A DNA stretch of 64,000 bases from Bdellovibrionota bacterium (GCA_965207455.1 CBDBMJ010000001.1:704001-768000); one strand, 5' to 3'; counted from the first letter of the stretch, positions 23,545-61,907 are shown. Program-made: numbers and translations. The notes: a model not told the origin generated them from the letters alone.

Positions 23545-24075
23545 ATGAAAATAACAAAAACAATAATATGTGCAACAACATTGGCTTTAGTATCTACAGG
23601 TGCTTGGGCTAGTGATTCATCTGGTTCATTTGGTAACTGGTTTGAAGCTACATCTGGTTCTACTGGTGGTGGAGAGGCAGCTGCTGAAGACAATGAAATG
23701 AGTGACGGTGCTGTTAGCCCTGAAATGAGTAAAAAATGGGGCAGTAGCACTGAAGGATCATCTCAAGGAGTATCTGATAGTAGTGGTAACGTCGTTGAAG
23801 ATGTCGCTGATACTGGAAAAGAAGTTGTTAATACAGGTGAGAAAGCTGTTAGTTCTAGCTTAGATAATCTTGGAGGATCATCTGAAGGAGTATCTGATAG
23901 TAGTGGTAACGCCGTTGAAGATGTTGCTGATGCTGGAAAAGAAGTTGTTAATAAAGGTAAGGATGCTGCTGGTTCTAGCTCGAAGAATGTTTCAGGATCT
24001 TCAACTGGTGAAAATGCTCAACCACCAACAGTTGAGGAAGAAAAAGAACGAGGAATAAACAGACCAAATAGGTAA
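23545..24075 (+). CDS. Secreted Ser/Gly/Glu-rich low-complexity protein with a 40-aa internal repeat
   Basis: RBS AAAGGAG, signal peptide ending AWA, downstream terminator. Confidence 0.8.
   Translation: MKITKTIICATTLALVSTGAWASDSSGSFGNWFEATSGSTGGGEAAAEDNEMSDGAVSPEMSKKWGSSTEGSSQGVSDSSGNVVEDVADTGKEVVNTGEKAVSSSLDNLGGSSEGVSDSSGNAVEDVADAGKEVVNKGKDAAGSSSKNVSGSSTGENAQPPTVEEEKERGINRPNR
23751..23980 (+). repeat. Intragenic direct repeat, 2 x 110 bp with 120-bp period
   Basis: 23751-23860 vs 23871-23980, 11 mismatches in 110 bp by manual count. Confidence 0.95.
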
Positions 24076-24118
24076 TTTATCAATTACTGTTTGACATGTT
24101 ATAGATAGTATATAAAAG

Positions 24119-24147
24119 ATCCCCCGCTTTTTAGGGGGATTTTTTTT
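24119..24147 (+). terminator. Rho-independent terminator
   Basis: ATCCCCC-gcttttta-GGGGGAT followed by a T tract. Confidence 0.85.
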
Positions 24148-24336
24148 GTTCTCAAAATAGCACCTCAGTTCAACAAGCTTTCTTTAGAGTTCGTCTTGAT
24201 TTGATGCGTTATTTCATGACTATGTGCATTTTAAAATGCATGATGCGCACAGTCAGTCTCCTTAAATAACCAGTTTTATTAGCTTTCTAGGTTGATAATA
24301 TTTGTATTTTTAAATCCACCATATTTTAGCTTGATG

Positions 24337-24424
24337 CATTAAATTTATTTTGTGCGATATATAAAAATCTATTGACAGGGTTGATGCTCGTAGGCTAAAA
24401 CTTCAGAATTAACTGATTGCACAA
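24337..24424 (+). promoter_or_regulatory. Duplicated promoter block, copy 2 (TTGACA at 24372)
   Basis: Aligns with 23394-23483. Confidence 0.8.
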
Positions 24425-24490
24425 TTTTCCAATCTCTTTAGAGAGGGGACTTTTGAAACTTTAATAAAGATTTAAGAAGGAAGAAATATA

Positions 24491-24811
24491 ATGAAAAAAA
24501 CACTATCAATTTTAGCTTTGCTTTTGATTTCTTTGAATGCCCCCGCTAATCAATTTCCTCCATCAGATATAGATAATCAATGGGGGGATTTTTATATTCA
24601 AACTGAAAAGGCTTGGAATTACCCACAGAATTCAATGTTTCTTTATACAGCATTTATAAGTGTAGCTATGCTTTGCAAAAAAGACTTGGAAGAAACATAC
24701 CCATACACTCCTGGTGACAAGGTGCAGGTAGAGGATATGGCTACAATTGTAAATGAGCTTTATCACAATCGTGCTTGTCCCAAACAATTAAGAGTAAAAG
24801 AAAGTGAGTGA
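24491..24811 (+). CDS. Small secreted hypothetical protein (2 Cys)
   Basis: Signal peptide MKKTLSILALLLISLNAPA; RBS AGAAGGA; overlaps the next gene. Confidence 0.7.
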   Translation: MKKTLSILALLLISLNAPANQFPPSDIDNQWGDFYIQTEKAWNYPQNSMFLYTAFISVAMLCKKDLEETYPYTPGDKVQVEDMATIVNELYHNRACPKQLRVKESE

Positions 24812-27188
24812 CTCAATCATGAAAAATAATAGTATTAAAAATATAAGAAACATAATCTCCATCACCTTTATAGGGTTGTTTTTTTCTGGAGTAACGCCAT
24901 CCTTTGCTTTAGAGGGGCGAGAACAATATTCTTTTTTAACAGCAAATATTCTTTCTGGCATGGATAAAGATATAGTAAGTGCTTTTTTAGAAAAAATTGA
25001 AAAAACAGTTCCTGATAATTTAAAAGCTTACTTTAAAGCTAAAAATAAGAGTTTTGTTGTTGATTTCTCTAAAACTAAAGAAGTGAAAAGCTTCATTCGT
25101 AGTTTAAGCAACTGTAGCAAAACTGGTTCTTCCTCTGACAGTAGAAAGGAACCTGAAACTTTATTGAGCAAACAGACTGTTTATTCTCCATTTGATAATA
25201 AAAACAACAAAAATGTATCAATTTATTTAGATTATAATTTCTTTATTAATCACAATGATTTCGTTAGTAATACCTCAAAAGTTGGTTGTTCCGATTTTTC
25301 TCAGTATGTTTGGCGTGAAATTCTAGTCCTTCAGAGAATATTTCATGCTTATGATTATATGGAGTATGTTTCTTTACAATACCCATTAAGAGCGAACCTT
25401 GGTTGGGCTTATTTAAATAACTCTTATAAAGCAATCAAAAATGAGATAAGAAAAAGAAAAGGCTTGCCATCAAATCCAGACCCACTTTCCCAGGAAAAGG
25501 AAAACAAGTGGGAATTAGATCTTAGAGAAATATCTAGAGAGAGCTTAATTCATGGGGAGCAATATAGGGACTCTGGGAGAGCTTTTTTATTAAATATAAC
25601 TTATTTCTTCAAAGATCCTGAGTTTTTCTGTCGAAGACCCGCAGCCTATATGCAGTTATCTAAGGAATTTTCTGTTTCCCCTAACAAGGGTGCTTGTAAG
25701 CCCAAAAATTGGGTTTTTGTTGAAAAAGGCAGCCATGTGGGAGCTTCTTGGAGAGAACCAAGCAGATTCAGTCACTCGGTCAAAGAGATAGATCCCAATC
25801 GTATTTACGAGGTTCATTATCTTTTAGCAGATAAGGCTAGTGATAATTTTATTGGCTCATTCGGTCACTCCATGTTTCGTTTCATCGTTTGTGCTCCATC
25901 ACGAAAAGTAGTTGGTCCAGATTGTTTAAAAGATGAAACTCATCATGTAATTTTAAGTTTTCGAATGGACTTGGATTTGGAAGGCATGCATCTTTTGAAG
26001 GCTATGAATGGTAAGCACGTTGGAAGAGCTTTGACGTATTCTTTTGTAGACATAAAAAAAGAATACCTTATTGATGAAAATAGACATCTTTATAGTATAC
26101 CGTTTGACTTTGATGAGTTTCAAAAAAATCAATTTATTTATGCTGCCCTTGAAAGCTATTGGGTTTACTTTGGTGGATATAAATTTCTTAGCTTAAACTG
26201 TGCTACAGAGAGCCTATACTTACTTCGAGTTGTGGATGGATTGGACCCCAAATTTTATGCTCTAAATGATTCTGTTGTTACGCCATTTAATATGTTTGAG
26301 ACTTTAGAAAAATACAATTTTTTCGTTCCGGGTCCTCTTAATGAAGTGAAGAAACATATGGAACAAGTAAAGAAAGAGGGAAATCAAAACAATTCTATGA
26401 GTTTTGAAAGTAAAAAGAATATTGAAGTAAGAGGGATGATTATGTCGATCCCAAATAGTGAAAGTAATATAATGGAAAATCTAATGGAAGATCTTTTAAT
26501 TAATCCTTCTCCGGATATCGCAGATTCTTTCTACTTATTTCGTAGTAAAAACTTAAATTTTGATAGCTTAGTTTATAATAAAGAAGCACGATGGATGATA
26601 GCATGGATTCAGAACTCTGGTTATCCCTTGAACCTAGATGAGAAAAAAGAATTTTTCTCTGAACTCAAAACAAGCGCAGAGGCTCGAAAGGATTTATTCC
26701 AATGGGTTCTCAATAGTAAACTGAACGAAAAAGAAAGAGCACTAACATTTTTAGCAGTAACAGAAAGAACTTATTTAAATAATCTGAAAAAAGGTATCGC
26801 TGAATATTTTGAAATGTTTGTTTCTGCTAGCTATAAAAATATCAAAGAAAATAATGAAATGACAAGTCTTTCCAACTGTCTGGCTCCTTTTGGAAAAGAT
26901 CTAAATAATATTGTCAATTTAAAAAGGCCGTGGAATAATATTTATCCCTTTGCAAGATATGGAACGCCTATGTTTGTTTCACCTAAGAATCTTGAGTTTA
27001 ATGGAAAGAAGATGATTAAATATTATAATGATATGCATTCCTTAGTGAAAAAAATGAAAAAATGTTTTGCAGATTCAGATGAACACGCTGGACGAGTGAT
27101 TAAAAACTCAAGAGTGAAAATGAAAATGTCTAAACGAAACTTAAAGTTTTTCTACAATACTTTAGGTTGGACTTATTTAAATATTTAG
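24804..27188 (+). CDS. Secreted DUF4105 (Lnb N-terminal-like) domain protein
   Basis: VHYLLA, GSFGHSMFRFIVC, YKFLSLNCATE (His/Cys), YFFKDPEFFCRRP; signal peptide if started at MKNNS. Confidence 0.8.
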   Translation: MSDSIMKNNSIKNIRNIISITFIGLFFSGVTPSFALEGREQYSFLTANILSGMDKDIVSAFLEKIEKTVPDNLKAYFKAKNKSFVVDFSKTKEVKSFIRSLSNCSKTGSSSDSRKEPETLLSKQTVYSPFDNKNNKNVSIYLDYNFFINHNDFVSNTSKVGCSDFSQYVWREILVLQRIFHAYDYMEYVSLQYPLRANLGWAYLNNSYKAIKNEIRKRKGLPSNPDPLSQEKENKWELDLREISRESLIHGEQYRDSGRAFLLNITYFFKDPEFFCRRPAAYMQLSKEFSVSPNKGACKPKNWVFVEKGSHVGASWREPSRFSHSVKEIDPNRIYEVHYLLADKASDNFIGSFGHSMFRFIVCAPSRKVVGPDCLKDETHHVILSFRMDLDLEGMHLLKAMNGKHVGRALTYSFVDIKKEYLIDENRHLYSIPFDFDEFQKNQFIYAALESYWVYFGGYKFLSLNCATESLYLLRVVDGLDPKFYALNDSVVTPFNMFETLEKYNFFVPGPLNEVKKHMEQVKKEGNQNNSMSFESKKNIEVRGMIMSIPNSESNIMENLMEDLLINPSPDIADSFYLFRSKNLNFDSLVYNKEARWMIAWIQNSGYPLNLDEKKEFFSELKTSAEARKDLFQWVLNSKLNEKERALTFLAVTERTYLNNLKKGIAEYFEMFVSASYKNIKENNEMTSLSNCLAPFGKDLNNIVNLKRPWNNIYPFARYGTPMFVSPKNLEFNGKKMIKYYNDMHSLVKKMKKCFADSDEHAGRVIKNSRVKMKMSKRNLKFFYNTLGWTYLNI

Positions 27189-27219
27189 TGCCTTTTATTA
27201 TGCCCTTTATGATAGCATT

Positions 27220-27750
27220 ATGGGTATGATTGATGGAAAAATCCATATTCTATTTGTTTGCTTGGGAAATATCTGTCGTTCTCCTATGGCAGAGGCTTTG
27301 TTTAAGCACCATATAAAAGAACAAAGTCTTGTTCAATTCTTCTCCATTGATTCTGCTGGTACAGGATCCTACCATGAGGGAAAGAATTACCATAGCAGCA
27401 CAATTCGTGTGGTTCAAGAAAATGGAATAGAAATTGATGGTCATAGTCGCCCTGTGCAGGCAAAAGATTTTACAAATTTTGATTATATTTTAGCTATGGA
27501 TGAATCGAACTACGATAATCTAGAAACTATGGCAGCAGAAAATCCACAGGTTAAGGCAAAGATAAATCATATCCTAGCCTACTCTACGGAAAGCCATCGT
27601 CATGGGCTTAGTGTTCCCGATCCTTATTTTAGTGGCTATAACGGTTTTCAATCCGTATTTGATTTACTCAACGATGCTTGTCTGGGGTTTCTCCAAGCAC
27701 TGATACAGGAGCATAAATTACTTGATGGATTGGACAGACCTTCAAAATAA
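27220..27750 (+). CDS. Low molecular weight protein-tyrosine phosphatase
   Basis: FVCLGNICRSPMAE, DSAGT, VPDPY. Confidence 0.95.
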   Translation: MGMIDGKIHILFVCLGNICRSPMAEALFKHHIKEQSLVQFFSIDSAGTGSYHEGKNYHSSTIRVVQENGIEIDGHSRPVQAKDFTNFDYILAMDESNYDNLETMAAENPQVKAKINHILAYSTESHRHGLSVPDPYFSGYNGFQSVFDLLNDACLGFLQALIQEHKLLDGLDRPSK

Positions 27751-28618
27751 GCTTCAAGAGACAATAGTAAAGAATGAGCCCATTACTAGTGAAGGGATAC
27801 ATAGGGCCTGGAAGGTAGTATTGGATTCAGGTAGAAGTATTTTTGTCAAAGGGGGCAAGGGTATGCCTTCTACCATGTTTTCATCTGAGAGTTTGGGTTT
27901 AGAGGAATTACGAAATATTGGTGTTTTCCGAATTCCAGTTGTATATGCTCACTCCAGATCTTACCTTGCTTTAGAATGGATTGAGGATCAAGTGGAGAAA
28001 AAAAAAGATAATTTGTATGCAAAGATGGGTATGTTGTTGGCAAAACAGCACAAGCACCACACAGAAAATTCATACGGTTGGAGAGAGGATAATTTTATTG
28101 GTAAAATTCCTCAACAAAATACATGGAATAGTTCTTGGTCCGTATTTTGGAAAACTATGCGTATAGAGCCTTTGGTTCAGCGAGCAAAAAAAAGTCTGTC
28201 GTCTCGTGATATGGATTCTTTGGAAAAGCTCTATGGGTGCATGGAAGAAATTCTTAGTGTTAGTGAAGAAAAGCCAGCTCCTTTGCATGGCGATCTTTGG
28301 GGTGGTAACCATTTAGTAGATCAAGATGGTGAAATTGTACTCATTGATCCTGCCTTTTACTATGGCCATCGAGAGGCTGACATAGCTATGACAAAAATGT
28401 TCTCTGCTTATCCACAAGCATTCTATGATGCCTATGAATATCACTTTCCTTTTGTTGCTGGTTTTTGGGAACAACGATTTTATTTATATTTGCTCTATCA
28501 CCAACTTTCCCATTTAAACCACTTTGGTACGGCCTACCTTGTTGGAGTTCGAGACTGTATACAAAAAGCTATACAGGGTAGGAAACCACATGAACCGCTG
28601 AGTTCTTTAAATCGGTAG
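27722..28618 (+). CDS. Fructosamine kinase family protein
   Basis: YGWREDNFIG, PLHGDLWGGN, IDPAFYYGHREADIAM, YHQLSHLNHFG. Confidence 0.93.
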   Translation: MMDWTDLQNKLQETIVKNEPITSEGIHRAWKVVLDSGRSIFVKGGKGMPSTMFSSESLGLEELRNIGVFRIPVVYAHSRSYLALEWIEDQVEKKKDNLYAKMGMLLAKQHKHHTENSYGWREDNFIGKIPQQNTWNSSWSVFWKTMRIEPLVQRAKKSLSSRDMDSLEKLYGCMEEILSVSEEKPAPLHGDLWGGNHLVDQDGEIVLIDPAFYYGHREADIAMTKMFSAYPQAFYDAYEYHFPFVAGFWEQRFYLYLLYHQLSHLNHFGTAYLVGVRDCIQKAIQGRKPHEPLSSLNR

Positions 28619-29666
28619 TGCGCTTGTCGTATCGTTCAATCATTAAGGGAGAACTCCAGCCGGCCATTTGCTGTACTGATCGATGGGAAGCTCCCTGATC
28701 TAGGGCATTGGAAATACAGGTGCTTCTACAGGAATGGGGGCTTATTTTAGCTTTCACGCCAGCTTTCTTAGTATATTTTTTTACAATGTAGGCGATGGTA
28801 TTGGTATTCAAAGGACGATCTTTTTTTAAGGCACGGTTATTTTTTACAGCAGAAAATAGAAATCGGTCCATTCCAGGGGCAAGATTGAAGCGTTCTAAAT
28901 AGATAGTTAAGATTTGGAGTACGGGCTTGGGAATGGGCAAAATTCTTTCCTTATCTCCTTTGCCAGGAACTCTTAGGCTGGTAATAATACTATCCCCTAC
29001 CCTTGTTTGTCCTATGTGAGAGCATTTCAATGCCACCACTTCACCACGACGAAGGCCCATATAAAAAAGTATACGGAGGATGAGTGCGTGCATGAGTCCG
29101 CTTTTTGTGTGCTGGCTTGCCATATCTAGAGTTCTTGCCACTTGAGCATCTGAGAGCCCTTCAGTGGGTGATTCTACTTTTGCGCGAAAATTACGTACCC
29201 AAATAGCGGGGTTTTCTTTTAAATAGCCCCGGCCCATAAGCCAGCCCAGAAATGATCGTACGGTAGCAAATTTTCGATTGGCCGAGCTCCGGCTAAGGCC
29301 TGCTCCATTCCTCTCCTTTGGCCGTACAAGCCAGTCACGGTACTCAAGGAGTGCATCTAGGGATGGCGAGTAGGACTCCATACGTAACCAGCCTAAGAAT
29401 TGTTTTAGATCGTTGCCATAAGCCCTTTGTGTGTGAATAGATCGTTGGGTTTGGGTAAAACGCTGTATTTCTTGGATGATCTCACCACGCATCCAGTCCT
29501 TTCTGGGTTCTGTCGGGTGTATTGTGATGGGTATTTTTGGGGTTAGGGAGAGCGTTTTTTCTGGGTTTATATCAGGTGTTTTTTGAGATTTTTGAAAAAA
29601 GCGATTTTTTATCCAATTTTGAATTTTGTGGAAAAAGTGGTTCAAAAGAGAAAAAATCTGGAACAT
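28569..29666 (-). CDS. Tyrosine recombinase (Xer/integrase family) with intact catalytic residues
   Basis: SAM-like domain (TQRAYGNDLKQF, SANRKFATVRSF); R (GLRRGEV), K (PGKGDKER), HxxR (PHSCRST), W (AGWSS), Y (ERYDKR). Start set to ATG 29666 with RBS AGGGG; ATG 29492 is an alternative. Confidence 0.92.
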   Translation of the reverse strand: MFQIFSLLNHFFHKIQNWIKNRFFQKSQKTPDINPEKTLSLTPKIPITIHPTEPRKDWMRGEIIQEIQRFTQTQRSIHTQRAYGNDLKQFLGWLRMESYSPSLDALLEYRDWLVRPKERNGAGLSRSSANRKFATVRSFLGWLMGRGYLKENPAIWVRNFRAKVESPTEGLSDAQVARTLDMASQHTKSGLMHALILRILFYMGLRRGEVVALKCSHIGQTRVGDSIITSLRVPGKGDKERILPIPKPVLQILTIYLERFNLAPGMDRFLFSAVKNNRALKKDRPLNTNTIAYIVKKYTKKAGVKAKISPHSCRSTCISNALDQGASHRSVQQMAGWSSPLMIERYDKRTTDLKNSAVHVVSYPV

Positions 29667-29677
29667 GCATACCCCTA

Positions 29678-29707
29678 TATTAGTGATAATTAAACTTATC
29701 ACCAATA
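29678..29707. other. Palindromic 12-6-12 tyrosine-recombinase-type site
   Basis: TATTAGTGATAA-TTAAAC-TTATCACCAATA; arms 11/12 complementary; 11 nt from the recombinase ATG. Confidence 0.75.
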
Positions 29708-29806
29708 AAAGCAAGCTTTTTTCTATTTATTTCGACCCTTTTCCCTACTTTGCCTTACCTTGGCCTATCCAAACCTAGAAATTAAGAAAACTTCGACGCG
29801 TCGCAT

Positions 29807-43299: not shown

Positions 43300-44781
43300 T
43301 TAATTTTTTCTCTGCTCTGAGAACTTTTCTTCACTATAGGTATACCTAAATTTCTTATTCTCTTGCATTGTATCTAACGATACAGCCCTTCCCCATAGTG
43401 CAGAGACGTTTGCCATAGTGGCCCTTACAGTTTTTAAATCAAGGTCTCTCCCATGATGCCTATGCTCCAATAACAAGCCTCCTTGGTTTAAATAATTCCC
43501 ATCTTTTACTTGAATCACGGGCTGGCTCCCATTGGTGATGTCGGTGAGAATCTCCTCTTTTACCTCTCGCCAATCTCTTGTTTTAATCTCATATTTGCCT
43601 GTTCTTGGGTTTAATCCATAGGTATAGTATCGCTCCTGTTCAGAGAACTCTTCTGTAAAGAAGGTATCGATAAATGTTATGTCGTTATGAATGGATCGAA
43701 CAGAAAAAATCTTTTCCTTTCCTTCGTTTGTGTCTCTATGCCAATTTTTTTTCTTTGTAAGATTATCACAATCTTCATATTCTTTTCCAAATTTTCCTGT
43801 ATTCCATCGATCCTCAATATAGCGAAATAACTCAATCCCTAATTTATAAGGGTTGATTTGATTGGGTTGCACTACCATTATTCCAGAATGTCGGTCTGCA
43901 AAATCTATTAATTCAGAAGAATCCAAAGCTTTTTCTGTCATTATCTTTGAATGCCAATAACTAGCCCAACCCTCGTTCATAATCTTTGTGACTCTTTGAG
44001 GAGCAAAATAATAGGATTCTTCCCTAATTATGGAAAGAATATCTGACTCCCATGAATTTAATTGACCATAATCAATGATGAATTTTAAAATATCCCTGTC
44101 CGGGCTTACTGGAAATTTTTTAGATTTTTGAAGCTGCCGTTTTATTTTCATCTCCTGCTCTTCAACATATTCCTTTGGATTGATGAAGCTATCTAAATAA
44201 AGTCTTGGTGAATTCAACCTTGACTTAGGTTCCACCTCAGAAGATTCATCTATTGTATTTTTATTATCAATAAATGGAGCATAAGGATCGATTAAATTTT
44301 CAATGGACAGACATTTATCAATAAAGCTCTCCACCTTATCTTGACCATATTTATCTACATATCGACGAATGCGTACCCCATGATTTGCCATTTGATCTAA
44401 CATTTTTCTATTCGTCTGCTTAAAACAATAATTATTTTTAAAAAAGTCAGAATGACCATATACATGCGCCATAATTAATTTCTGATCTAAATGGGAGTTG
44501 CTATTCATTAAATAGGCGTAACAAGGATCTGTATTGATCACCAGCTCATAAATTTTTTGCATACCCCATGTATAAGCAACCGATAATTGATCATAAATCA
44601 TTCCTGTTCGCCAATGGGGATAACGCTTGGGAAATCCACCTCCAGCAGCCACTGCATTTAATTCATCATAATCAAGAAATTCAAAAATAGTATCAAAAAA
44701 ATCTAATCCATAATCACGGGCATGATTCTCTATTTCTTTCTGTACTTTTGTTAAAGCTATGGGTAAACTAGAATCAATCAA
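43300..44781 (-). CDS. spoVR: SpoVR family protein
   Basis: RYPHWR, KIYELVINTDPCYAYL, AHVYGHSDFFKNN, TKIMNEGWASYWH, NPYKLG. Confidence 0.95.
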   Translation of the reverse strand: MIDSSLPIALTKVQKEIENHARDYGLDFFDTIFEFLDYDELNAVAAGGGFPKRYPHWRTGMIYDQLSVAYTWGMQKIYELVINTDPCYAYLMNSNSHLDQKLIMAHVYGHSDFFKNNYCFKQTNRKMLDQMANHGVRIRRYVDKYGQDKVESFIDKCLSIENLIDPYAPFIDNKNTIDESSEVEPKSRLNSPRLYLDSFINPKEYVEEQEMKIKRQLQKSKKFPVSPDRDILKFIIDYGQLNSWESDILSIIREESYYFAPQRVTKIMNEGWASYWHSKIMTEKALDSSELIDFADRHSGIMVVQPNQINPYKLGIELFRYIEDRWNTGKFGKEYEDCDNLTKKKNWHRDTNEGKEKIFSVRSIHNDITFIDTFFTEEFSEQERYYTYGLNPRTGKYEIKTRDWREVKEEILTDITNGSQPVIQVKDGNYLNQGGLLLEHRHHGRDLDLKTVRATMANVSALWGRAVSLDTMQENKKFRYTYSEEKFSEQRKN

Positions 44782-44783
44782 AA

Positions 44784-45899
44784 TTACTTCCCTTTACCAA
44801 GAAAATCCTTAATAGAGTCCATGATGCCTTCTTTATTTTGAATCTTTGATGTGACAATTTTTTCTTCATTCCCTTTAAATTGCTTCTCTAAATCTTTTAA
44901 AAACTGCCCACTGCCATAACGACTTTCCACTTGACCATAACAAAGCATATTAATATTAGGTAAAAGATATTTTTCCATGATATCAAAGCAAATTTTGGTG
45001 TCCTCTCCACTCCAATTATCCCCATCACTAAAATGGAATACATATATATTCCATTGATCCACAGGATAATGTACTTCCAATATTTTTTGAGCTGCTCGAT
45101 ACGCACTAGAGATTAAAGTACCTCCACTTTCACGGGTGGAATAAAAAACTTTTTCATCTACTTCTTGGGCTGTCGTATCATGAATAATATAACGACTCTC
45201 TAAGCCCTTATATTGAGATCGAATCCATGTATCAATCCAAAAACTCTCTGTGCGAACAATTTCTTTTTGCTCGTCACCCATTGATCCCGAAACGTCCATT
45301 ATATATATAATAACTGCATTTGCCTCATGCTCCTCAGATTGCTTACGACTCCGGTATCGAAAGTCTCGCTTAATGGGTATAATAATCGGGTTTTCAGGAT
45401 CGTAGGTATCGGAAGCTATTTGACGCTTCAAAGCCTCTTTATAGCTTTGTTTAAAGTTAATTAAGGAGTTTGGACCCTGAACAGCTAACCCCTTATACTT
45501 ATCTTTTTTTCTTTTTAAGGTTTTTTGTCCCTTAGGCTCTATTCGAGGTAATTCCAACTCTTTTCCAAGAATATCTGCCAACTCTTTCAATTCAAATTCT
45601 ATCTCTAGAGAATGGTCTCCTGCCGTATTACCCGCTTTATCCAGTCCTCCCTCATCTCCATCTTTTGAACCTTGAGCAACTTGATCTCCAGCATTTCCTT
45701 CTCCCTGCCCCACGCCTTTCTTAGAATCACCAAATTGAAAGTGAGGAATCTCTATCTGAGGCATGGGTATAGCTACTTTATCTTTCCCCCTACGAACGAT
45801 CATATCCCCGTTAGTTATGTATTTCTTTAAATCCTGTTTTATTTTGCCCTTTATAATATTTTTAAAACGGGCGTGGTCTTGTCTAACATCAAAGAGCAT
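44784..45899 (-). CDS. yeaH: YeaH/YhbH (DUF444) vWA protein
   Basis: MDVSGSM MIDAS motif, [15 protein letters not shown]. Confidence 0.93.
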
Positions 45900-46347
45900 C
45901 GGGTATTTCCTTTACTACTGCATCAATCATAGCAATCTGGCTAACTAAATTTTTATCAGCATATTGCCTTAAAGCATTGCAATTAGTTTCAGTATTCATA
46001 ACATGACCTTCAGTGGGCTCAATAATAAGCTTCATTTTATCCGATGAAACTGTATAAATGCCTCCTTTTATTTCAAAAGTAAATTCACAACCTTTACTTA
46101 ATTCTCCTTCCCTGCATTTATCATTCCCCTTAACTTCACTTAATTTGTAGATATTTTCATCTTTGCTTATAAAACGGATATGGGTGGGAACTTCAGATGA
46201 AAGACCTCCGAGAAACTCGATTCGACCTTTCTCCACTTGAAATGCTTTAAACAATAGCTGTGCCGGGCGTATCACTCCAAGACCTCGTTCTTGAGAATGA
46301 GCAGGGAAGGATAAAAGGCCTGCTAAAACCATGATTTTTGTTATCAT
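45889..46347 (-). CDS. Secreted hypothetical protein between prkA and yeaH
   Basis: Signal peptide [18 protein letters not shown]; 3-nt gap after prkA, 11-nt overlap with yeaH. Confidence 0.65.
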
Positions 46348-46350
46348 AAC

Positions 46351-48444
46351 TTAATCTTCTTTCTCTTTAGTGTCTCCTCTAGCAAAAATAGAAGCCACAT
46401 AATTAAGCACATCAGTAGCAGATATCTCATCATAACCAAAATCGTTAATTAAACGGTTTTTCACCACATCAATTTTTTCTTGTGCCGATTTATCCACCAC
46501 GTTTGAAATTAAAGTAGAGAGCTTAATAGAATCTTTTTGGTCTTCAAATAATTTAGATTCCAATGCTTTATGTAATCGCTCGTTCGTCTTGTAGTTAAAC
46601 TTTTTGCCCTCTACAGCCAATGCTCCAATATAGTTCATAATTTCTCTACGGAAGTCATCTTTCCGAGATTCCAATATGTCGATCTTTTCCTCAACAGAAC
46701 GCATGAGCCTCTCATCAGGCTCCTCCACTTGTCCTGTATAGCTATTACGAATTTTTTCTTTTTGAGTATAGGCTTTTACACTATCAATATAATTTCCGCA
46801 TAGGCTGGCAATAGCATTTTCATCTGATGAAATAGCTCGCTGAACTTCATTTTTAACAATATCTTCATACTCTTGCTTTACCAAAACTAATAATTCTCGA
46901 TACTCTCTACAAGACTCTTCATCAGAGGCTAATGTATTTCTCAAAAGACCGCTCTCCAACTCATTAAATACCATAAATGGATTAATACAACCAAGATGCC
47001 CATACTTTACCAAAGCATTAGATATTTTATCTTGAATATACCTAGGTGAAATACCATCTAAGCCCTCTCTAACGGCTTCCTTGCGTAACTCTTTTACATT
47101 TTCTTCCGTATAACCACTAAGGGTTTTTCCATCATATAACTTTAACTTTTGCATGAGAGTGAGATCGTTCTTTTTGGGTCGCTCCAGTCGGGTGAGAATG
47201 GCCCAAATGGCAGCCATTTCTATGGTATGGGGAGCAATACTAATATTATCTACTTTTCCCTTACCAAAATCTTTTTCATATATTTTTATCTCTTCATGAA
47301 GCTTTGTAATATATGGAATATCTATCTTTATGGTTCGATCCCTAAGGGCTTCCATGAATTCATTATTTTGGAGTTTTCGAAACTCTGGCTCATTGGTGTG
47401 ACCAATAATAACTTCGTCAATATAGGTTTGAGCGAATTTTTTAGGTTTTACCATATGCTCCTGAGACGCCCCTAAAAGGTCGTAAAGGAAAGCTACATCT
47501 AACTTCAAAACTTCTATAAATTCCACCAATCCACGATTAGCAACTTGGAATTCACCGTCGAAATTAAACGCTCTTGGGTCCGAATCAGAACCATACTCAG
47601 CAATCTTCCGATAATTAATATCTCCTGTAAGCTCCGTAGAATCTTGGTTTTTCTCATCTTTAGGTTGAAATGTGCCAATCCCCCGTCGATCTCTTTCTGA
47701 AAGCACAAAACGGAATACTCGAATATGCTCTGCTACTTTTCCCCAATCACCATTATAACGATCCATTAATTTAGTGTAAATATAACGACAAGGAGGGGAC
47801 AATTGACCATTAACTTTTATTTTATAAGAGTTTTTATTATTTCTATTTAATTTTTCCTCCACCTGAGGACGAAACTCTGTGGGAATAAGTAGAAGAGGCT
47901 CTTCATTCATAGGGGAATTCATTGTCTTAGAAGAAACCCCAAGGAGTTCCTCGCTTCCCTCACTCTCATCTTCCCAGCGGAAAGTATAAATACTGCCTTC
48001 GTCTGTATGGGAATAGCGCTCTAATCCTTGTTTTAAAAGACGGGTAATCGTGGATTTTGCGGATCCTACAGGACCATGGAGCAGGAGCACTCGTTTTTCT
48101 GTGCCATAACCAAGGGCTGCACTCTGTATAAAATTCACCAATTTCATTAAGGAAATATCTAAGCCATAGATAGCGTCTTTTCCATCATTAACAGGGTCGT
48201 CAAAGAATTTATAATGGGTTACTTTCTTTTTGTAATCCGTATGGGTACTAGTTCCATAACTTAAAATCATATCGTACATGCGCTGAAATGCATTTCTGGC
48301 TGGATTTGGCGATTTTTCCAACATTGCCACATATTCGGATAAGCTTCCTTCCCAATGCAAATTCTGGTAGTCTTTGGGCTTCTGTAGCTTTTTAATCGTA
48401 TCAATAATTTCTGATCTTGATTCCTGCATAAATTCCTCCTTCAT
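46351..48444 (-). CDS. prkA: PrkA/YeaG AAA+ serine protein kinase
   Basis: [57 protein letters not shown]. Confidence 0.96.
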
Positions 48445-56335: not shown

Positions 56336-57490
56336 ATGGAATTACCCTACAAAAACATACTCGCTAGTGCCTTTCTTGATCTGCCCCCATGGTGCTCCCC
56401 TATTGATGTTCGATCTCCTAAAGAGTTTCAAAAAAGCTCCCTGCCAAATACTGTCAATATCCCTATTGTAAACGATCAAGAACGCCACCTAGTGGGTCTT
56501 TGCTACAAAGAACAGGGGGAGAAAGAGGCCATTCGACTAGGGCTTGAACTTACAGAAAAAAATAAACCTGCCATAATCCAGTCCTGGCAAACACATTTTA
56601 TAAAACAGGAAGCGCGTGTATTGCTATGCTGGCGTGGCGGCCTACGAAGCAAGATTGCCCAATCTTGGCTGGCAGAACAAAATACCCCTTGCCTGCGGGT
56701 AGAGGGTGGCTATAAGGAAGTAAGAAAACTATTACTATCTATCCTAGAGCGCCCCTTTTCTGGTCTTGTTTTAAGTGGAGCCACAGGTTCTAGAAAAACT
56801 CTTTTTTTACAGAAATTTCAAAAAGAATGCCATAAAAGTGCTTTTGTTGACTTGGAAGGTATTGCCTCCCATAAGGGAAGTGCTTTTGGCGGTATCATTA
56901 ATAAAGAACAACCTTTGGCTGCAAACTTTGAAAATACACTTGCCTGGACCCTATATAAGAATAAAAGCCTTCCCTTGCTCTTTGAAAATGAATCCAAATC
57001 CATTGGTCGCACCTACCTACCCAATACCTTTTTTCGTCACTTCTCCTTATTGCCGAAAATTGAATTAAAGGCGCCTATAGAAACTCGTATTAAAAATATC
57101 TATGAAGATTATATTCTAAAAGACGAAAAAGAGCATTCACAAGAAATAGTTCGCCAACACTATAGTAATGCTTTAGATAAATTATATAAAAGCCTAGGCA
57201 GCCAAAGATATAATGAAATAAAAGATGCCATGACTGCTGCTTTTGATAATAATGATCCCATACAACACTATCATTGGATTGAAAGAATATTGAAAGAGCA
57301 CTACGACCCTTGTTATGCATTTAGCTCCAAGAGGGCGGGAAGAAAAATACTTTTTTCGGGCGATAGAAAAGAAGTACACAATTTTCTAAAAAATAAAATT
57401 TTAAAAAATCAAATTTTAAAAAATCAAATTTTAACTGTACCCCACCCCTCCTCTGGCACTGAACAAACCTCTCCCACGATAGCACTATAG
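56336..57490 (+). CDS. selU: tRNA 2-selenouridine synthase
   Basis: IDVRSPKEF, CWRGGLRS rhodanese, GATGSRKT P-loop, DLEGIASHKGSAFG, ENESKSIG. Confidence 0.92.
   Translation: MELPYKNILASAFLDLPPWCSPIDVRSPKEFQKSSLPNTVNIPIVNDQERHLVGLCYKEQGEKEAIRLGLELTEKNKPAIIQSWQTHFIKQEARVLLCWRGGLRSKIAQSWLAEQNTPCLRVEGGYKEVRKLLLSILERPFSGLVLSGATGSRKTLFLQKFQKECHKSAFVDLEGIASHKGSAFGGIINKEQPLAANFENTLAWTLYKNKSLPLLFENESKSIGRTYLPNTFFRHFSLLPKIELKAPIETRIKNIYEDYILKDEKEHSQEIVRQHYSNALDKLYKSLGSQRYNEIKDAMTAAFDNNDPIQHYHWIERILKEHYDPCYAFSSKRAGRKILFSGDRKEVHNFLKNKILKNQILKNQILTVPHPSSGTEQTSPTIAL
57387..57434 (+). repeat. 15-bp tandem repeat x3 at the selU/selD junction
   Basis: TAAAAAAT(A/C)AAATTT at 57387, 57402 and 57417; encodes KNKIL-KNQIL-KNQIL. 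Confidence 0.9.
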
Positions 57491-59559
57491 GGGTATACCT
57501 GCTTTAACTCTTCACAACACCGTTGGGCATCTTTGGTCGCAATTCCTAATAAAATTCCTCCTGAGGTTTGGGGATCGTGGAGAATGGAAGGAGCTCCAGG
57601 CAAGGCAGGGAAATTCTTCCTTTCCATGCGACTGTAATAGCCACGGTTTCGTAAATCACTTGCTATCTCTAGCACAGGAATTTGAGACATGTCTAAAGAA
57701 GCTCCCATACGACTAGCTATTAACATATTTTTTAAATGCCTCAAAAAACCAAAACCAGACACATCCGTTGATCCACCTATTTTATATTTTTTTAAAATCT
57801 CCATTGCAAATACCTGACTTTGTCCCATTTGCTCTATTAGTTGAGCAAAGTCGATACCGGATACAGCAAAGCGCATGGCTGCTGCGAGAATAATCCCTGT
57901 TCCTAAGGGTTTAGTAAGTATAATTTTATCTCCGGGTTGAAGCGTTCCATTTCCCCATGCCTGGGATTCTTCCTGCTTTCCTAAAAGAAAAAATCCCACT
58001 TGAGATTCTTCACCTTCTATCGTATGTCCTCCCACAAGCTCAATTCCCTCTGGCTCCATTACGGACTGAGCACCTGCTAAAATAAAACGCATTTCATTTA
58101 CTGCCATCTCTTCCTTTTGCTTTTGAAGCATTATGTTTGCCAGTGCGTATTGAGGCTTCACTCCTTTGGCGTAAAGGTCCGAACAAGCATTTACAGCAGC
58201 GATTCTTCCAAAATGATAGGGATTGGCTCCAAAGTTTTTAAATTGATCCACGGTAAGACCAATGGTTTCTGCTCCCATTGTTACTACGGCAATATCATCT
58301 CCTTCTTCCACTCCTAAGCGCACCCCTTTAGAATTGCTTAATTTTAGAATATCAAGGGATTTATCCAGTACACTTGCACTCACCTTGCAGCCACATCCTC
58401 CGCAATTTGGATCTTTCATGGGGTCCAATGGCTCAAACGTATATTTCTCCATAAACCTACGATCAATCCAATCCTTTAAATTCCAATACATTGAGCCCAT
58501 ACTCTTAAAGAACTTATACTCAACAATGGCTTTTTCATCACCAAGGTTAAGTAAACGTAGGTAACTCTTCTGAGGACGGTAGTTTTTCATCCTAAGACCG
58601 CTTTCTTTTATGGTTTCCAAGAGGTTATAAAACAATATGGGTGCTTGTCGTACTGGGTATACTCCAGCTTTATGGGTGGTGGGATAATTTTCCAATTCTG
58701 CACAATCGCCCACAGCAAAAATATTTGGAAAATCAGAAGCTTGTAGAGAATCTTTCACCCGTATCCACCCCTTGCCTTCCCTATCTAACAGACTATTTTG
58801 AAACAAGACATGGGAGGCAGCCCCTCCAGCCCAAACCATACGAGTGGCTGAGACCACTCCTTGATTTGTTTGTAACTCCAAACCATCTTCTCTAACGGAA
58901 ACATTCTCCAAGGTTATATTGTGCACTTCTATTCCTCTTTTTTCTAAGGCTCTACGCTGTAGAGGGTATAGAGTACTCGTGCGTTCCCAAAGTATGAGTT
59001 TGAGTTTCTTTTCTATATATTGGTTTTTATAGCGATTTCTTAGGGCTAGAGCAATTTCAAAGCCAGTGGCTCCAGCTCCAACGCAGATAATTTTTTCTTC
59101 TGACAAATTTTGTGAAGAATGAATTTCTTTATCCCAAATTTCTATGTTTTTTAAAATCTGAGACAAGGGGCGTGTGGCAATAATGCGTGTGGATGGTTCT
59201 GTGATTTTTTTGCTGGTGGAACCTATGTCGAAAGAAACCACATCGTAGGATAGATCAGGAAGCCCTTTCAGAGAAAGCTTTCGTTTCTTTGGATCACAGG
59301 CAGTAACAGAAGTTTGGTAAAATACGGCATTAGCTTTTTTACATAAATGGTCTAAATCAATACCAATATTGGTGTACTTGCCACTTAAAAGCCCAGGCAA
59401 CATTCCAGAGTAGTATGCATTTACGTCGGGAGAAATAAGGGTCACACGAACATTAGGTAAGGATGGCCAGCGACGCAAGACCTCCACATGGGCATGCCCT
59501 CCTCCCACCAGTACTAAGTGCTTATCTTTAAGAATAGGAAATTTAAGGGGTTGTGCCAT
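57424..59559 (-). CDS. selD: Selenophosphate synthetase fused to an N-terminal FAD/NAD(P) oxidoreductase
   Basis: LVGGGHAH, YSGMLPG, FAVGDCA, KAGVYPVRQ; SelD part CGGCGCK, GDD, SDLYAKG, GGHT, LTKPLGTG, TDVSGFG, DPQTSGG. Confidence 0.93.
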   Translation of the reverse strand: MAQPLKFPILKDKHLVLVGGGHAHVEVLRRWPSLPNVRVTLISPDVNAYYSGMLPGLLSGKYTNIGIDLDHLCKKANAVFYQTSVTACDPKKRKLSLKGLPDLSYDVVSFDIGSTSKKITEPSTRIIATRPLSQILKNIEIWDKEIHSSQNLSEEKIICVGAGATGFEIALALRNRYKNQYIEKKLKLILWERTSTLYPLQRRALEKRGIEVHNITLENVSVREDGLELQTNQGVVSATRMVWAGGAASHVLFQNSLLDREGKGWIRVKDSLQASDFPNIFAVGDCAELENYPTTHKAGVYPVRQAPILFYNLLETIKESGLRMKNYRPQKSYLRLLNLGDEKAIVEYKFFKSMGSMYWNLKDWIDRRFMEKYTFEPLDPMKDPNCGGCGCKVSASVLDKSLDILKLSNSKGVRLGVEEGDDIAVVTMGAETIGLTVDQFKNFGANPYHFGRIAAVNACSDLYAKGVKPQYALANIMLQKQKEEMAVNEMRFILAGAQSVMEPEGIELVGGHTIEGEESQVGFFLLGKQEESQAWGNGTLQPGDKIILTKPLGTGIILAAAMRFAVSGIDFAQLIEQMGQSQVFAMEILKKYKIGGSTDVSGFGFLRHLKNMLIASRMGASLDMSQIPVLEIASDLRNRGYYSRMERKNFPALPGAPSILHDPQTSGGILLGIATKDAQRCCEELKQVYPYSAIVGEVCSVPEEGWGTVKI

Positions 59560-61078
59560 AAAATTGAACCATATAATAATTCTTTTCTAACGGAGCAAGG
59601 CTTTGTTTTTGCCATGCATCTCTCCAAGGAAACTCTCCACTCCACTCCTGCCACCTGTTCTCTTTATGAGTTAGAGATGGATAGTGTTGTCGAGCAAATA
59701 CTTTGAGACGATTCAAGTCCTCCTCCCCTGATACCACAATCCTATCCCCTTGCCTAATTGATTGAGCCAATTCATTCTGGGTTTGTAGGGTTCTTACGGG
59801 TATGCGAAAAAAGGTAATTTTTCCTCTCAGCGCTTTGTTTTTTTGACCTTGCTTACTTGGATCATAGTACGTCAGGGCTTGTTCTTTATCAGGGGAAAAA
59901 AATGTTTCTGTCACACGTTTTTTATCTCTCTGGCCTAAATCCATCAATAAAATGCCCACTCCTAAAAAAAGCCAAATACTCCTTTTAGCTATTGCCATGG
60001 GACGAGATAGATGGAATCTGGTCGCTTCGTTCCAAAAACCTTTTGCTGTTAGGACAACCCCTACCCAGAAAAAAGGTAGTGTCCAGTTCGACCACCAAAG
60101 AGGAAGAGGTTTAAAATGGTCTATAACTACAGTCAACCCAACAGCAAACAGTAAAAGAGCTATCGCCGTAAGGACTAAAGAACTTGTATAGTATTTAGAG
60201 AATTTTTCTGAACAGGTAGACCACAGAGCCACTATAATTAAAATCAGCCCAGCCATAAGGGGCAGACTGCCCCATAATCCCATTAAAGGAAAGATAGATA
60301 AACCCAAAACAATTAGGCGTGATTGCTGGGGAAATTGCCAGAATTTTCTTTTCTTTTCTTTTACACAAATCAAGCAATAACGAGTAAAACGAATAACACC
60401 ATCTCCATAGGCAACCAAAGCAATGAAAGTCCAAGGAAACAGGTAATATGTAAAAGCAGGTACTATGGATCCCCAATTCGCATTGGGGATAAGTGGTGCA
60501 TCTCTATTAAAATCAAAGAGGAGGGCAAGCATATAAGGAACTAATGCTGTGGATATGGCTAAAAAGAATTTTGTTTTTTTATATAGGCGCGCCCGGAGCT
60601 CGCCCATACAAAACCAAAAGAATAAAGCACATAGACCCATTGCTGGAATAAGTACGGGAGAGTATAGCGTTCCCATCACTCCCACAAAAACCCAAAATTT
60701 CCAATCTCCCTCTCCCCTATCGCTTTTATTTAAAAAATATAGGGTAATTGCCAATAGAGCTGTTAATCCAGCATGGGCAGAAAATATAAGGGAGAATATA
60801 CCTGCGTTTATAGCAAAAACTAATCCTGCCCAAAAAGACCAGTCGGATCGATCTAGGTTTGCATTGACAATAGATATAATGGATAAAGAACCCAATACAA
60901 TAAGAATAAAATGTATATCATTATATCCTAAAGAGTTTTGAAATAAGGAGGAACCCATAAAAGGGAGATATACTATTCCCACCAGAAAAATAAAAAATAA
61001 CCAAGAGAATTTTATTGTCGGTAAAACGTTGGAACTATTTTTTTGATGTATTTCTTTTTTTGCAATATTTTTCTTCAT
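59543..61078 (-). CDS. Polytopic membrane protein, possibly a divergent ArnT/GT39-like glycosyltransferase
   Basis: About 12 TM, YYLFPWTF motif, C-terminal soluble tail; similarity judged by eye only. Confidence 0.4.
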   Translation of the reverse strand: MKKNIAKKEIHQKNSSNVLPTIKFSWLFFIFLVGIVYLPFMGSSLFQNSLGYNDIHFILIVLGSLSIISIVNANLDRSDWSFWAGLVFAINAGIFSLIFSAHAGLTALLAITLYFLNKSDRGEGDWKFWVFVGVMGTLYSPVLIPAMGLCALFFWFCMGELRARLYKKTKFFLAISTALVPYMLALLFDFNRDAPLIPNANWGSIVPAFTYYLFPWTFIALVAYGDGVIRFTRYCLICVKEKKRKFWQFPQQSRLIVLGLSIFPLMGLWGSLPLMAGLILIIVALWSTCSEKFSKYYTSSLVLTAIALLLFAVGLTVVIDHFKPLPLWWSNWTLPFFWVGVVLTAKGFWNEATRFHLSRPMAIAKRSIWLFLGVGILLMDLGQRDKKRVTETFFSPDKEQALTYYDPSKQGQKNKALRGKITFFRIPVRTLQTQNELAQSIRQGDRIVVSGEEDLNRLKVFARQHYPSLTHKENRWQEWSGEFPWRDAWQKQSLAPLEKNYYMVQFYGTTP

Positions 61079-61907
61079 TTTTTAATTTTTTTAAGTATTC
61101 CCTATACTCTGCTAAAGAATACTCTTCCCGTACCCCTATTCGCCGTTGGATTTCCTTTTCAGAAACCTTCTTCTTTAACCATTGTACAATAGCAAAATGA
61201 CGCAGTGTTTTTGGCTTCATTTCAGGATATCCCAGACGACCAGCCACCCTAGAAAATAAAAGCTCCACTCCCCTTGGAGTCATTCGTAGGCTAATGAGTC
61301 CATGGCGGTTATACCCTGGAAATAAAAAATTTCCTGAATGATGGGTTCGCCACAGCTTGAGTATTCTCTGCAACGAGACAGAAGCCCTCAAATAACGTTC
61401 TCTTTTACCTGGTATTTTCAATCCAGACCCATCCCAGTGGGTCCAGCGCAAAGAACAAAGTTCAGAGATCATAATTCCCATTTCTCCCAAGATTTTCACT
61501 ACGAGTACATTTCTGCAACCTAAAGGTGTTTTTTGGGAAAAAGCTCCATAAAATCGACGGTAGTCTTTTGGCCTTGGCAACCAAGGTAGTTTTTCTATGG
61601 CTTGGGGAGGACGAATAAATTTTGCTGGAGAAATTTCGATTTTTTTTCGAGAATATGCATAACGATACAGCGATCGTGCTGTAATGAGTTTTCGCCTACG
61701 GGTATTGGTCTTCAAACCCCTATCTAATAAATAATTGTGATAGCTCTCAAAATCCCGCTTCATGACTTTTAAAAATGGGATTTTCTTCTTTTTTAAAAAC
61801 TCTTGGAAAACAAGGATATCTCCCTGATAGGAAGAGATAGTCGAACGAGCCTTCCCCGTACCCTCTAAAAACCCCAAGTAGCTTTTAAGGATTTTCTCCA
61901 TAGCCAT
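61035..61907 (-). CDS. XerC/D-like tyrosine recombinase homologue with degenerate active site
   Basis: SAM domain (TISSYQGD, TRRRKLITARSLY); GIMISEL (Arg lost), PKTLRH (His lost), IGVRE (His/Trp lost). Confidence 0.8.
   Translation of the reverse strand: MAMEKILKSYLGFLEGTGKARSTISSYQGDILVFQEFLKKKKIPFLKVMKRDFESYHNYLLDRGLKTNTRRRKLITARSLYRYAYSRKKIEISPAKFIRPPQAIEKLPWLPRPKDYRRFYGAFSQKTPLGCRNVLVVKILGEMGIMISELCSLRWTHWDGSGLKIPGKRERYLRASVSLQRILKLWRTHHSGNFLFPGYNRHGLISLRMTPRGVELLFSRVAGRLGYPEMKPKTLRHFAIVQWLKKKVSEKEIQRRIGVREEYSLAEYREYLKKLKNEEKYCKKRNTSKK

Follow-up and report, generated by a model that had tools for sequence, protein, structure and literature searches.

Why should a bacterial chromosome that already has XerC, XerD, FtsK and dif carry, near its terminus, a further tyrosine recombinase with a symmetric site of its own? 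The question is raised by a 64,000-nucleotide stretch of DNA from a Bdellovibrionota bacterium (the window), which corresponds to positions 704,001-768,000 of contig C1 (1.875 Mb) in a genome of 2.38 Mb. A preliminary description of the window had proposed a second, single-recombinase module that coexists with XerCD/dif near the terminus, and this is supported by the conservation of the site, its position near dif and the distinctness of the protein. Our preferred reading, to which a probability of roughly 0.55 is given, is that the module derives from a plasmid-type resolution system, was domesticated, and has been retained at the terminus to assist XerCD/dif. The features concerned are listed in Table 1.

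Table 1. Features of the window that bear on the recombinase and its site (positions counted from the first nucleotide of the window)
Feature	Position	Strand	Remarks
Candidate recombination site, 11-6-11, ATTGGTGATAA-GTTTAA-TTATCACTAAT	29679..29706		Minus-strand reading; single copy in the genome
Tyrosine recombinase gene	28569..29666	-	365 aa, ATG 29666; PF02899 and PF00589
Likely ribosome-binding site, AGGGG	29672..29676	-	Between site and ATG; read from the sequence
Basic Phe/Trp-rich amphipathic helix, residues 2-23	29598..29663	-	Predicted helix H2-23, ahead of the disordered linker
Canonical XerC/XerD dif, AGGTCTGATAA-TATATA-TTATGTAATAA	17619..17646	+	30.5 bits; next 13.9
Catalytically degenerate tyrosine recombinase paralogue	61035..61907	-	Conserved, terminus-linked

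The coordinates first given for the recombinase, 28569..29714, pointed to the right gene but belong to a longer, TTG-started reading frame; the 365-residue ATG form was preferred because orthologues with the same gene order start just behind the site. As had been described, the gene encodes an intact R-K-HxxR-W-Y recombinase and a palindromic site lies 11 nt before its ATG. The catalytic set (R206, K236, H311, R314, W337 and Y346) is invariant in all 86 orthologue sequences. The recombinase domains are the core-binding and catalytic ones, and an arm-binding domain is absent. The predicted structure (pLDDT 81.6) consists of an N-terminal helix, a disordered linker and these two domains, and its structural matches ranked XerA first, followed by IntI4, Cre and XerH. 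The genes flanking the recombinase encode a fructosamine kinase, a low-molecular-weight phosphatase, a DUF192 protein, a hypothetical protein, a subtilase and Lnt; all are housekeeping or hypothetical and no mobile element is among them, in agreement with the earlier statement that phage, transposon and cargo genes are missing here.

On the minus strand the site can also be read as 12-6-12, TATTGGTGATAA-GTTTAA-TTATCACTAATA (29707-29678), with 11 of 12 arm positions symmetric. It scored 31.6 bits with the site weight matrix, the next best match in the genome reaching 17.0. Palindromes of the 12-6-12 type with at most one mismatch number 27 in the 1.875-Mb contig, so that the chance of one falling within 50 nt of a particular start codon is about 1 in 1000, and a pattern drawn from the site matched in none of 100 shuffles of the window. 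A perfect 12-6-12 palindrome of unrelated sequence is present in the terminus region just beyond the window end (C1:768811-768840 in the window genome, G000).

The genome contains nine tyrosine recombinases in total and one ftsK. The xerC, xerD and ftsK genes were all found intact: xerD (C1:177.6 kb) and xerC (C1:1,058 kb) have complete catalytic motifs and score 304 and 299 bits respectively on the XerD model. As separate xerC and xerD genes exist, the window protein is a third Xer-like recombinase. Two Xer-like genes, some of them partial, were found in all 38 genomes checked; this, together with the intact XerC, XerD, FtsK and dif, counts against the preferred reading. Five further genes of G000 are integrase-like (C1:778298-779419, C1:1228423, C1:1267969, C1:1721634 and C2:4446); they form two paralogous groups, and one is on a 5.6-kb contig.

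The canonical dif is the sole high-scoring dif in the genome, lies 12.1 kb from the symmetric site and resembles deltaproteobacterial dif sequences tabulated in the accessible part of PMC2731167. The GC-skew maximum is at contig position 746,267, 12.6 kb from the symmetric site. The polarity of KOPS changes in the interval from 718,640 to 732,995; dif (721,619) is inside this interval, and the symmetric site (733,679) lies just past its end. The switch is at the canonical dif and not at the symmetric site in G000, G003, G063 and G153, which argues against a primary role for the module.

The position near dif is shared by relatives. Gene, site and a dif match were found together in 20 genomes, with site and dif on one contig in 14 and on different contigs in six; in all 14 the distance is 0.13-52 kb (median 11 kb). 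Further distances are 7.6 kb (G007), 63 kb (G003), about 73 kb (G116), 82 kb (G153) and 125 kb (G063), and in G067 the site is 118 kb from a candidate dif. The skew maximum is 3.5 kb from the site in G063 and about 10 kb from it in G129. The site remains near dif even when it is detached from the gene (G043 and G047). The ter-proximal location proposed for the window is, then, a conserved one, the site being 0.1-125 kb from dif among relatives with both on one contig. In three genomes of one genus, all without the module (G013, G023 and G025), two canonical-looking dif sites occur on different contigs; examples of doubled dif are L122:6785, L123:10348, L124:7297 and L125:7818.

The coexistence of two systems could mark a replacement in progress, in which the module is taking over from XerCD/dif. 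Sole single-recombinase systems provide precedents, and the accessible text of PMC3025954, where coexistence in L. helveticus is noted, reads that case as such an intermediate. The present coexistence, however, extends across several families whose proteins are 38-73% identical, and the losses seen affect the module, not XerCD. Strict patterns had suggested that clade C or genus g3 has no canonical dif; this was rejected, as XerC and XerD are present, and the weight matrix recovers the dif missed by those patterns in G003, G007 and G063; no clear dif was identified in G067 and G129. A replacement is consequently highly improbable.

Homologues, both the named ones and 80 GTDB loci, are labelled almost entirely as Bdellovibrionota or with obvious bin labels for that phylum. 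Among 61 class-level relatives, 41 have one orthologue each (E<1e-50), the identity being 38-73% for the other 40, and the remaining 20 have nothing better than 1e-24. In a phylum sample the family profile at E<=1e-60 matched in 100 of 251 genomes, from which 18 of family f20 and one of f33 were counted apart and not as orthologues. Some families are fixed for a profile match (28/28, 10/10 and 6/6) and others have none (0/31, 0/17 and 0/10). Counts from GTDB, from the set of relatives and from the metagenomes are not independent, since these sources have loci in common. The module is dispensable, being missing from 20 of the 61 class relatives and from whole families, and this absence too speaks against the preferred reading.

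The 15 f20/f33 proteins that were fetched fall outside the site-bearing clade; most have His in place of the catalytic Trp, with no comparable site. In the f20 sister clade (L223, L226-L230, L233-L238, L240 and L241) His replaces Trp and no symmetric site is nearby, and a viral contig, L184, nests inside it. For the context of the sister proteins no names were found, and a metagenome scan returned Bdellovibrionota clades instead.

Gene and site go together. A strict site pattern matched in 35 of 41 genomes with the gene and in none of 20 without it; the relaxed pattern, applied to all 61, matched in 39/41 and 1/20, nearly always in one copy. The lone match without the gene, in G019, is weak and poorly symmetric, and the two gene-bearing misses are fragmented assemblies (G009 and G045). 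These figures refer to a search pattern built from sites near orthologues and to related genomes that are not independent. The same association is seen within one genus (4/4 with the gene against 0/5 without) and, with the strict pattern, within one family (14/17 against 0/9). The weight matrix gave more than 20 bits in 60 of 80 loci and 16-19 bits in two more, never twice in a locus and in none of 80 shuffles. The expectation that the palindrome would be conserved alongside the gene was thus confirmed. G037 retains a C-terminal 40-codon remnant of the gene behind btpA (L121:7944-8063), 4 kb from dif, and the site is gone. In G059 and G103 two or three site-like sequences are found on different contigs and may reflect contamination, plasmids or secondary sites.

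The arms have GATAA in common with the XerC arm of the local dif, as might be expected if the site were bound in XDS-like fashion by XerC or XerD alone and the neighbouring gene were incidental. This is scarcely credible, since 19 of the 20 genomes without the gene are also without the site, though nearly all have dif or Xer genes.

Four clades carry the site in different arrangements. In clade A it is upstream of the gene, with spacers of the type GTTTAA or TTTTAG; in clade C it is upstream as ATTAGTTATAA-TTTTAG-TTATCACTAAT (25 of 28 genomes by pattern); in clade D it is upstream with the spacer GTTAAA (5/5 fetched). Clade B has ATTCGCGATAA-N6-TTATCGCGAAT, downstream of the gene or detached from it, by 12-53 kb in five genomes and on another contig in four, with near-perfect conservation kept. 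The placement directly upstream of the gene that was noted in the window therefore holds for most clades and fails for clade B. Among metagenome loci with at least 150 bp upstream, the site was found in 23/23 of clades A and C; in clade B it was within the fetched DNA in 14/43. The gene order upstream is conserved within clades and consists of housekeeping genes, among them btpA for clade B and, for clade C, genes of the flagellum. A palindromic spacer occurs in none of 39 distinct sites. Protelomerase sites are perfect palindromes without an asymmetric spacer, and a protelomerase site was rejected on this ground.

In the window the sequence TTGCTT is present at 29714-29709 and had been read as a -35 element, with the implication that binding at the site would repress the gene; a sigma-70 scan gave no promoter upstream of the gene, so that the element named is unsupported. 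Better evidence for autorepression comes from clade C, in which the left arm and first spacer base spell TATAAT in 26 of 26 loci and the right arm retains the consensus base in 24; a -10 box within the site, with the enzyme repressing its own gene, would produce this pattern. In clade C, and also in L051 and L054-L056, a conserved G(C/G)(C/T)AATAAA(C) motif stands 8-20 nt behind the site like an extra outer half-arm, and could be an accessory binding site or a promoter element. In two clade C loci (L068 and L075) a tRNA-like sequence was recognised by eye about 60-110 nt behind the recombinase stop.

The site might, on such grounds, be an operator only, regulating the gene while the recombinase acts elsewhere, and the majority of clade A, C and D members do have it 4-150 nt before the start. 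This seems quite improbable: no other target-like site was found in the window genome, and the clade B sites are conserved although they lie downstream, far away or on another contig. A site up to 53 kb from its gene in one clade must be more than an operator. It is very probable, judging from the sequences, that the protein recombines the symmetric site.

The best annotated relatives of the family are uncharacterised proteobacterial plasmid proteins of 316-333 aa with 28-32% identity, from Nitrosospira, Polaromonas, Paraburkholderia, Methylomonas and Pseudomonas. Fourteen of the top 20 were examined. Ten of these group together in one clade, with family-profile scores of 155-193 bits, as against 115 bits for XerC and 82 bits for XerD. 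In seven of the 14, GATAA-N6-TTATC occurs 39-968 nt upstream with no more than a single mismatch between the arms, and in an eighth there is a weaker version; in the site of a Pseudomonas syringae plasmid an 11-bp arm is identical to an arm of the window site. With the family profile and four single members as queries, neither P1 Cre nor F ResD was matched at E<=10. StbA of Pseudomonas plasmids was considered as a known name and rejected, as its annotation carries another resolvase signature (PMC6354349). The comparison with XerS, XerH and XerA made in the preliminary description needs correction in that the protein is closer to plasmid recombinases.

Trees (quick or FastTree) separate the family from XerC/XerD but give no supported join to the plasmid clade, and short proteins nest within the family; one or several domestications are thus possible. 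The unsupported join and the low identity to uncharacterised plasmid proteins weigh against the preferred reading.

The plasmid relatives also suggest a gatekeeper for mobile DNA, in which plasmids or phages that bear a similar site would enter or leave the chromosome at this point, integrated or removed by the enzyme. Plasmids do carry nearly the same site, with one arm identical, the genes downstream vary between relatives, and the gap between gene and site in clade B ranges from 45 bp to 53 kb. In clades A, C and D, however, nothing interrupts the gap, a second or hybrid copy of the site was found in none of 80 loci, and no joint was seen among the contigs of one sequencing run. A phage mimic of the site was rejected, as viral contigs gave no match and 22 viral relatives have no such site upstream. 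We regard the gatekeeper as rather unlikely.

The N-terminal segment of the window protein has a hydrophobic moment of 0.69, a value that only about 0.4% of 937 background N-termini exceed. In the site-bearing clades there is an N-terminal extension of 55-150 residues, the first part of which is basic and often also amphipathic: of 57 proteins, 26 have a moment of at least 0.6 and a charge of at least 3, against 6.6% of the 937 background proteins, 0/10 plasmid relatives and 0/13 site-less sister proteins, start codons being guessed and seven rows with doubtful starts left out. The helix may tether the recombinase to the membrane.

The degenerate paralogue lacks the first Arg, the His of HxxR and the second His/Trp. 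It occurs in 47 of 61 class genomes; in many it is close to dif, and its distance from the active gene is often 2-4 kb. It is a candidate non-catalytic terminus factor. Obligate pairing of the two genes was rejected, as the paralogue is present in 11 genomes without the module; it was not found in family f5, where four genomes have the module.

These features could belong to a terminus anchor or organiser that tethers the terminus to the membrane or pole via the N-terminal helix, or that blocks SMC, recombination being secondary. The enrichment of the basic amphipathic segment in site-bearing clades and the conservation of the dead paralogue in the same region favour such a role, and according to the accessible text of PMC11894783 XerD unloads SMC at the terminus of B. 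subtilis without recombining. The catalytic residues are nevertheless all invariant, the spacer is conserved within clades and 31 of the 57 proteins fall below the helix thresholds, with start codons guessed. Organisers such as XDS or matS are multi-copy; here the symmetric site occurs once, and half-site counts are flat along the contig with no enrichment at the terminus, so that a multi-copy XDS-like distribution was rejected. An anchor is unlikely.

The protein also stands apart from the named Xer types. It scored 136 and 122 bits against the XerC and XerD cut-offs of 335 and 330, 46.8 bits for XerS (cut-off 267) and 96.1 bits for XerA (NF040815, cut-off 220), and a comparison with the XerH chain gave 32.7 bits. 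The site is of the type GATAA-N6-TTATC, as against the TGAAAAC...TTTTCAAA consensus of difH/difSL (difH consensus taken from the accessible part of PMC2731167). With xerC, xerD, ftsK and dif present this is no sole Xer system, although, as in such systems, the gene is accompanied by a symmetric site that is intergenic, present once and situated in the terminus region. A phage or ICE integrase or an IMEX is not indicated, there being no arm-binding domain, attL/attR pair or mobile cargo, and the match to Cre is one of fold at the superfamily level only, without Cre/ResD-type homology. In the broad sense the locus is a plasmid-type resolvase module, a simple tyrosine recombinase with a gene-adjacent symmetric GATAA-N6-TTATC site.

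Compared by description, a close parallel is XerL/difL of the Legionellales. The accessible part of PMC9765430 describes one recombinase with plasmid-borne relatives and a near-symmetric site of about 29 bp, tens of kb from the GC-skew peak and at times far from the gene; XerL acts there on a perfectly symmetric site 35-43 kb from the peak. XerL is, by that account, the only system in its hosts, whereas the Bdellovibrionota module coexists with intact XerC, XerD, dif and FtsK. XerS/difSL and XerH/difH (accessible parts of PMC1914069, PMC5357621 and PMC2731167) are likewise single recombinases of similar length linked to a terminus site, but they replace XerCD, depend on FtsK and use a site of different sequence. 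Archaeal XerA/dif shares the 11-6-11 inverted repeat, is an FtsK-independent single enzyme in the accessible part of PMC5357621 and gives the best structural match; the host of the present module, unlike that of XerA, is a bacterium with XerCD, and the protein has an N-terminal extension.

Plasmid tyrosine recombinases have the highest profile scores among the annotated proteins tested and the same type of upstream site, but are plasmid-borne, shorter and without the basic N-terminal helix. Cre/loxP, Cre-type recombinases and F-plasmid ResD/rfsF (accessible parts of PMC10250229 and PMC9412624) resemble the module in a gene-adjacent symmetric site, in G/T-A-T-A beside the spacer and in replicon multimer resolution by one enzyme. 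They differ in arms of 13-14 bp, against 11-12 bp here, and the module is chromosomal and vertically inherited. Cre-type recombinases are proven to be active on gene-adjacent sites with this motif beside the spacer, and the supplement of PMC10250229, as far as accessible, lists sites having the core seen here.

The preferred reading, a domesticated plasmid-type module, would work as follows. A plasmid-type resolvase, comprising one recombinase and a symmetric 28-bp site, would have been domesticated early in part of the Bdellovibrionota. Each 11-bp arm would be bound by one subunit, as the symmetry, the co-occurrence and the plasmid relatives suggest, and a homotetramer would add or remove one crossover between sisters, whereby dimers could be resolved or unlinking helped. 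As there is a single site per chromosome, the only partner would be the sister copy after terminus replication. The non-palindromic 6-bp spacer would set the parallel alignment of the sites, as the asymmetric spacer does in dif and loxP. The enzyme probably needs no activation by FtsK, because KOPS converge on the canonical dif and the site may be more than 100 kb away. Where the site covers the promoter, most clearly in clade C, the enzyme would limit its own expression.

Recombination would presumably be safe only at the terminus. According to the accessible text of PMC2731167, Cre/loxP replaces dif only there; this restriction and the XerL precedent (PMC9765430, accessible part) fit an auxiliary role. 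The loss of the site in G037 together with all but a remnant of the gene also favours the preferred reading. On the other side, a recombinase under no regulation would create dimers as readily as it removes them. On balance, an auxiliary part in dimer resolution or in unlinking is somewhat favoured as the cellular job.

The module is apparently undescribed, and is set apart by its stable coexistence with XerCD/dif and its plasmid-type site. Literature searches gave no description of it, subscription papers and bioRxiv supplements being outside their coverage, and the accessible part of a tyrosine recombinase classification (bioRxiv 10.1101/542381) names no such subgroup. In the available portions of the reviews and surveys XerS, XerH, XerA and XerL are described as sole systems that replace XerCD, coexistence being a one-species oddity in L. 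helveticus. For B. bacteriovorus xerCD, dif and ftsK are listed; the accessible text of one review, which lists only these, expects dimers to be a larger problem in filament-forming predators (PMC11318664).

Many uncultured relatives of the predatory Bdellovibrio, then, keep near the terminus a second, plasmid-like enzyme with its own mirror-symmetric target, which may serve as a backup system. If many families retain such a module next to an intact XerCD/dif, this would show that a chromosome can have two means of resolving its terminus, would link single-Xer origins to plasmid resolvases and would give a handle on how filament-forming predators separate many chromosomes. The family also offers compact recombinase-site pairs with clade-specific spacers. 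A more far-reaching and doubtful version is that a membrane-tethered, FtsK-independent recombinase unlinks sister termini without a septum, in a stable two-system architecture. If true, this would serve predatory Bdellovibrionota, whose filaments contain several replicating chromosomes before any septum is formed, at a stage when XerCD cannot yet be activated by septal FtsK. The catalytically dead Xer paralogue would then possibly be a further terminus factor, and plasmid resolvases may have been domesticated repeatedly at the termini of bacteria, with this module as one instance.

Some other parts of the window were noted in passing. At 23800-27500, data from one sequencing run show short contigs and loose ends that suggest strain variation around a gene for a 794-aa Lnb-like protein and a repeat-rich 176-aa protein at 23545-24075. 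A PrkA-DUF444-SpoVR operon (43300-48444) and a rhodanese gene opposite an oxidoreductase-AIRS fusion that resembles selenium metabolism (56336-59559) both look ordinary.
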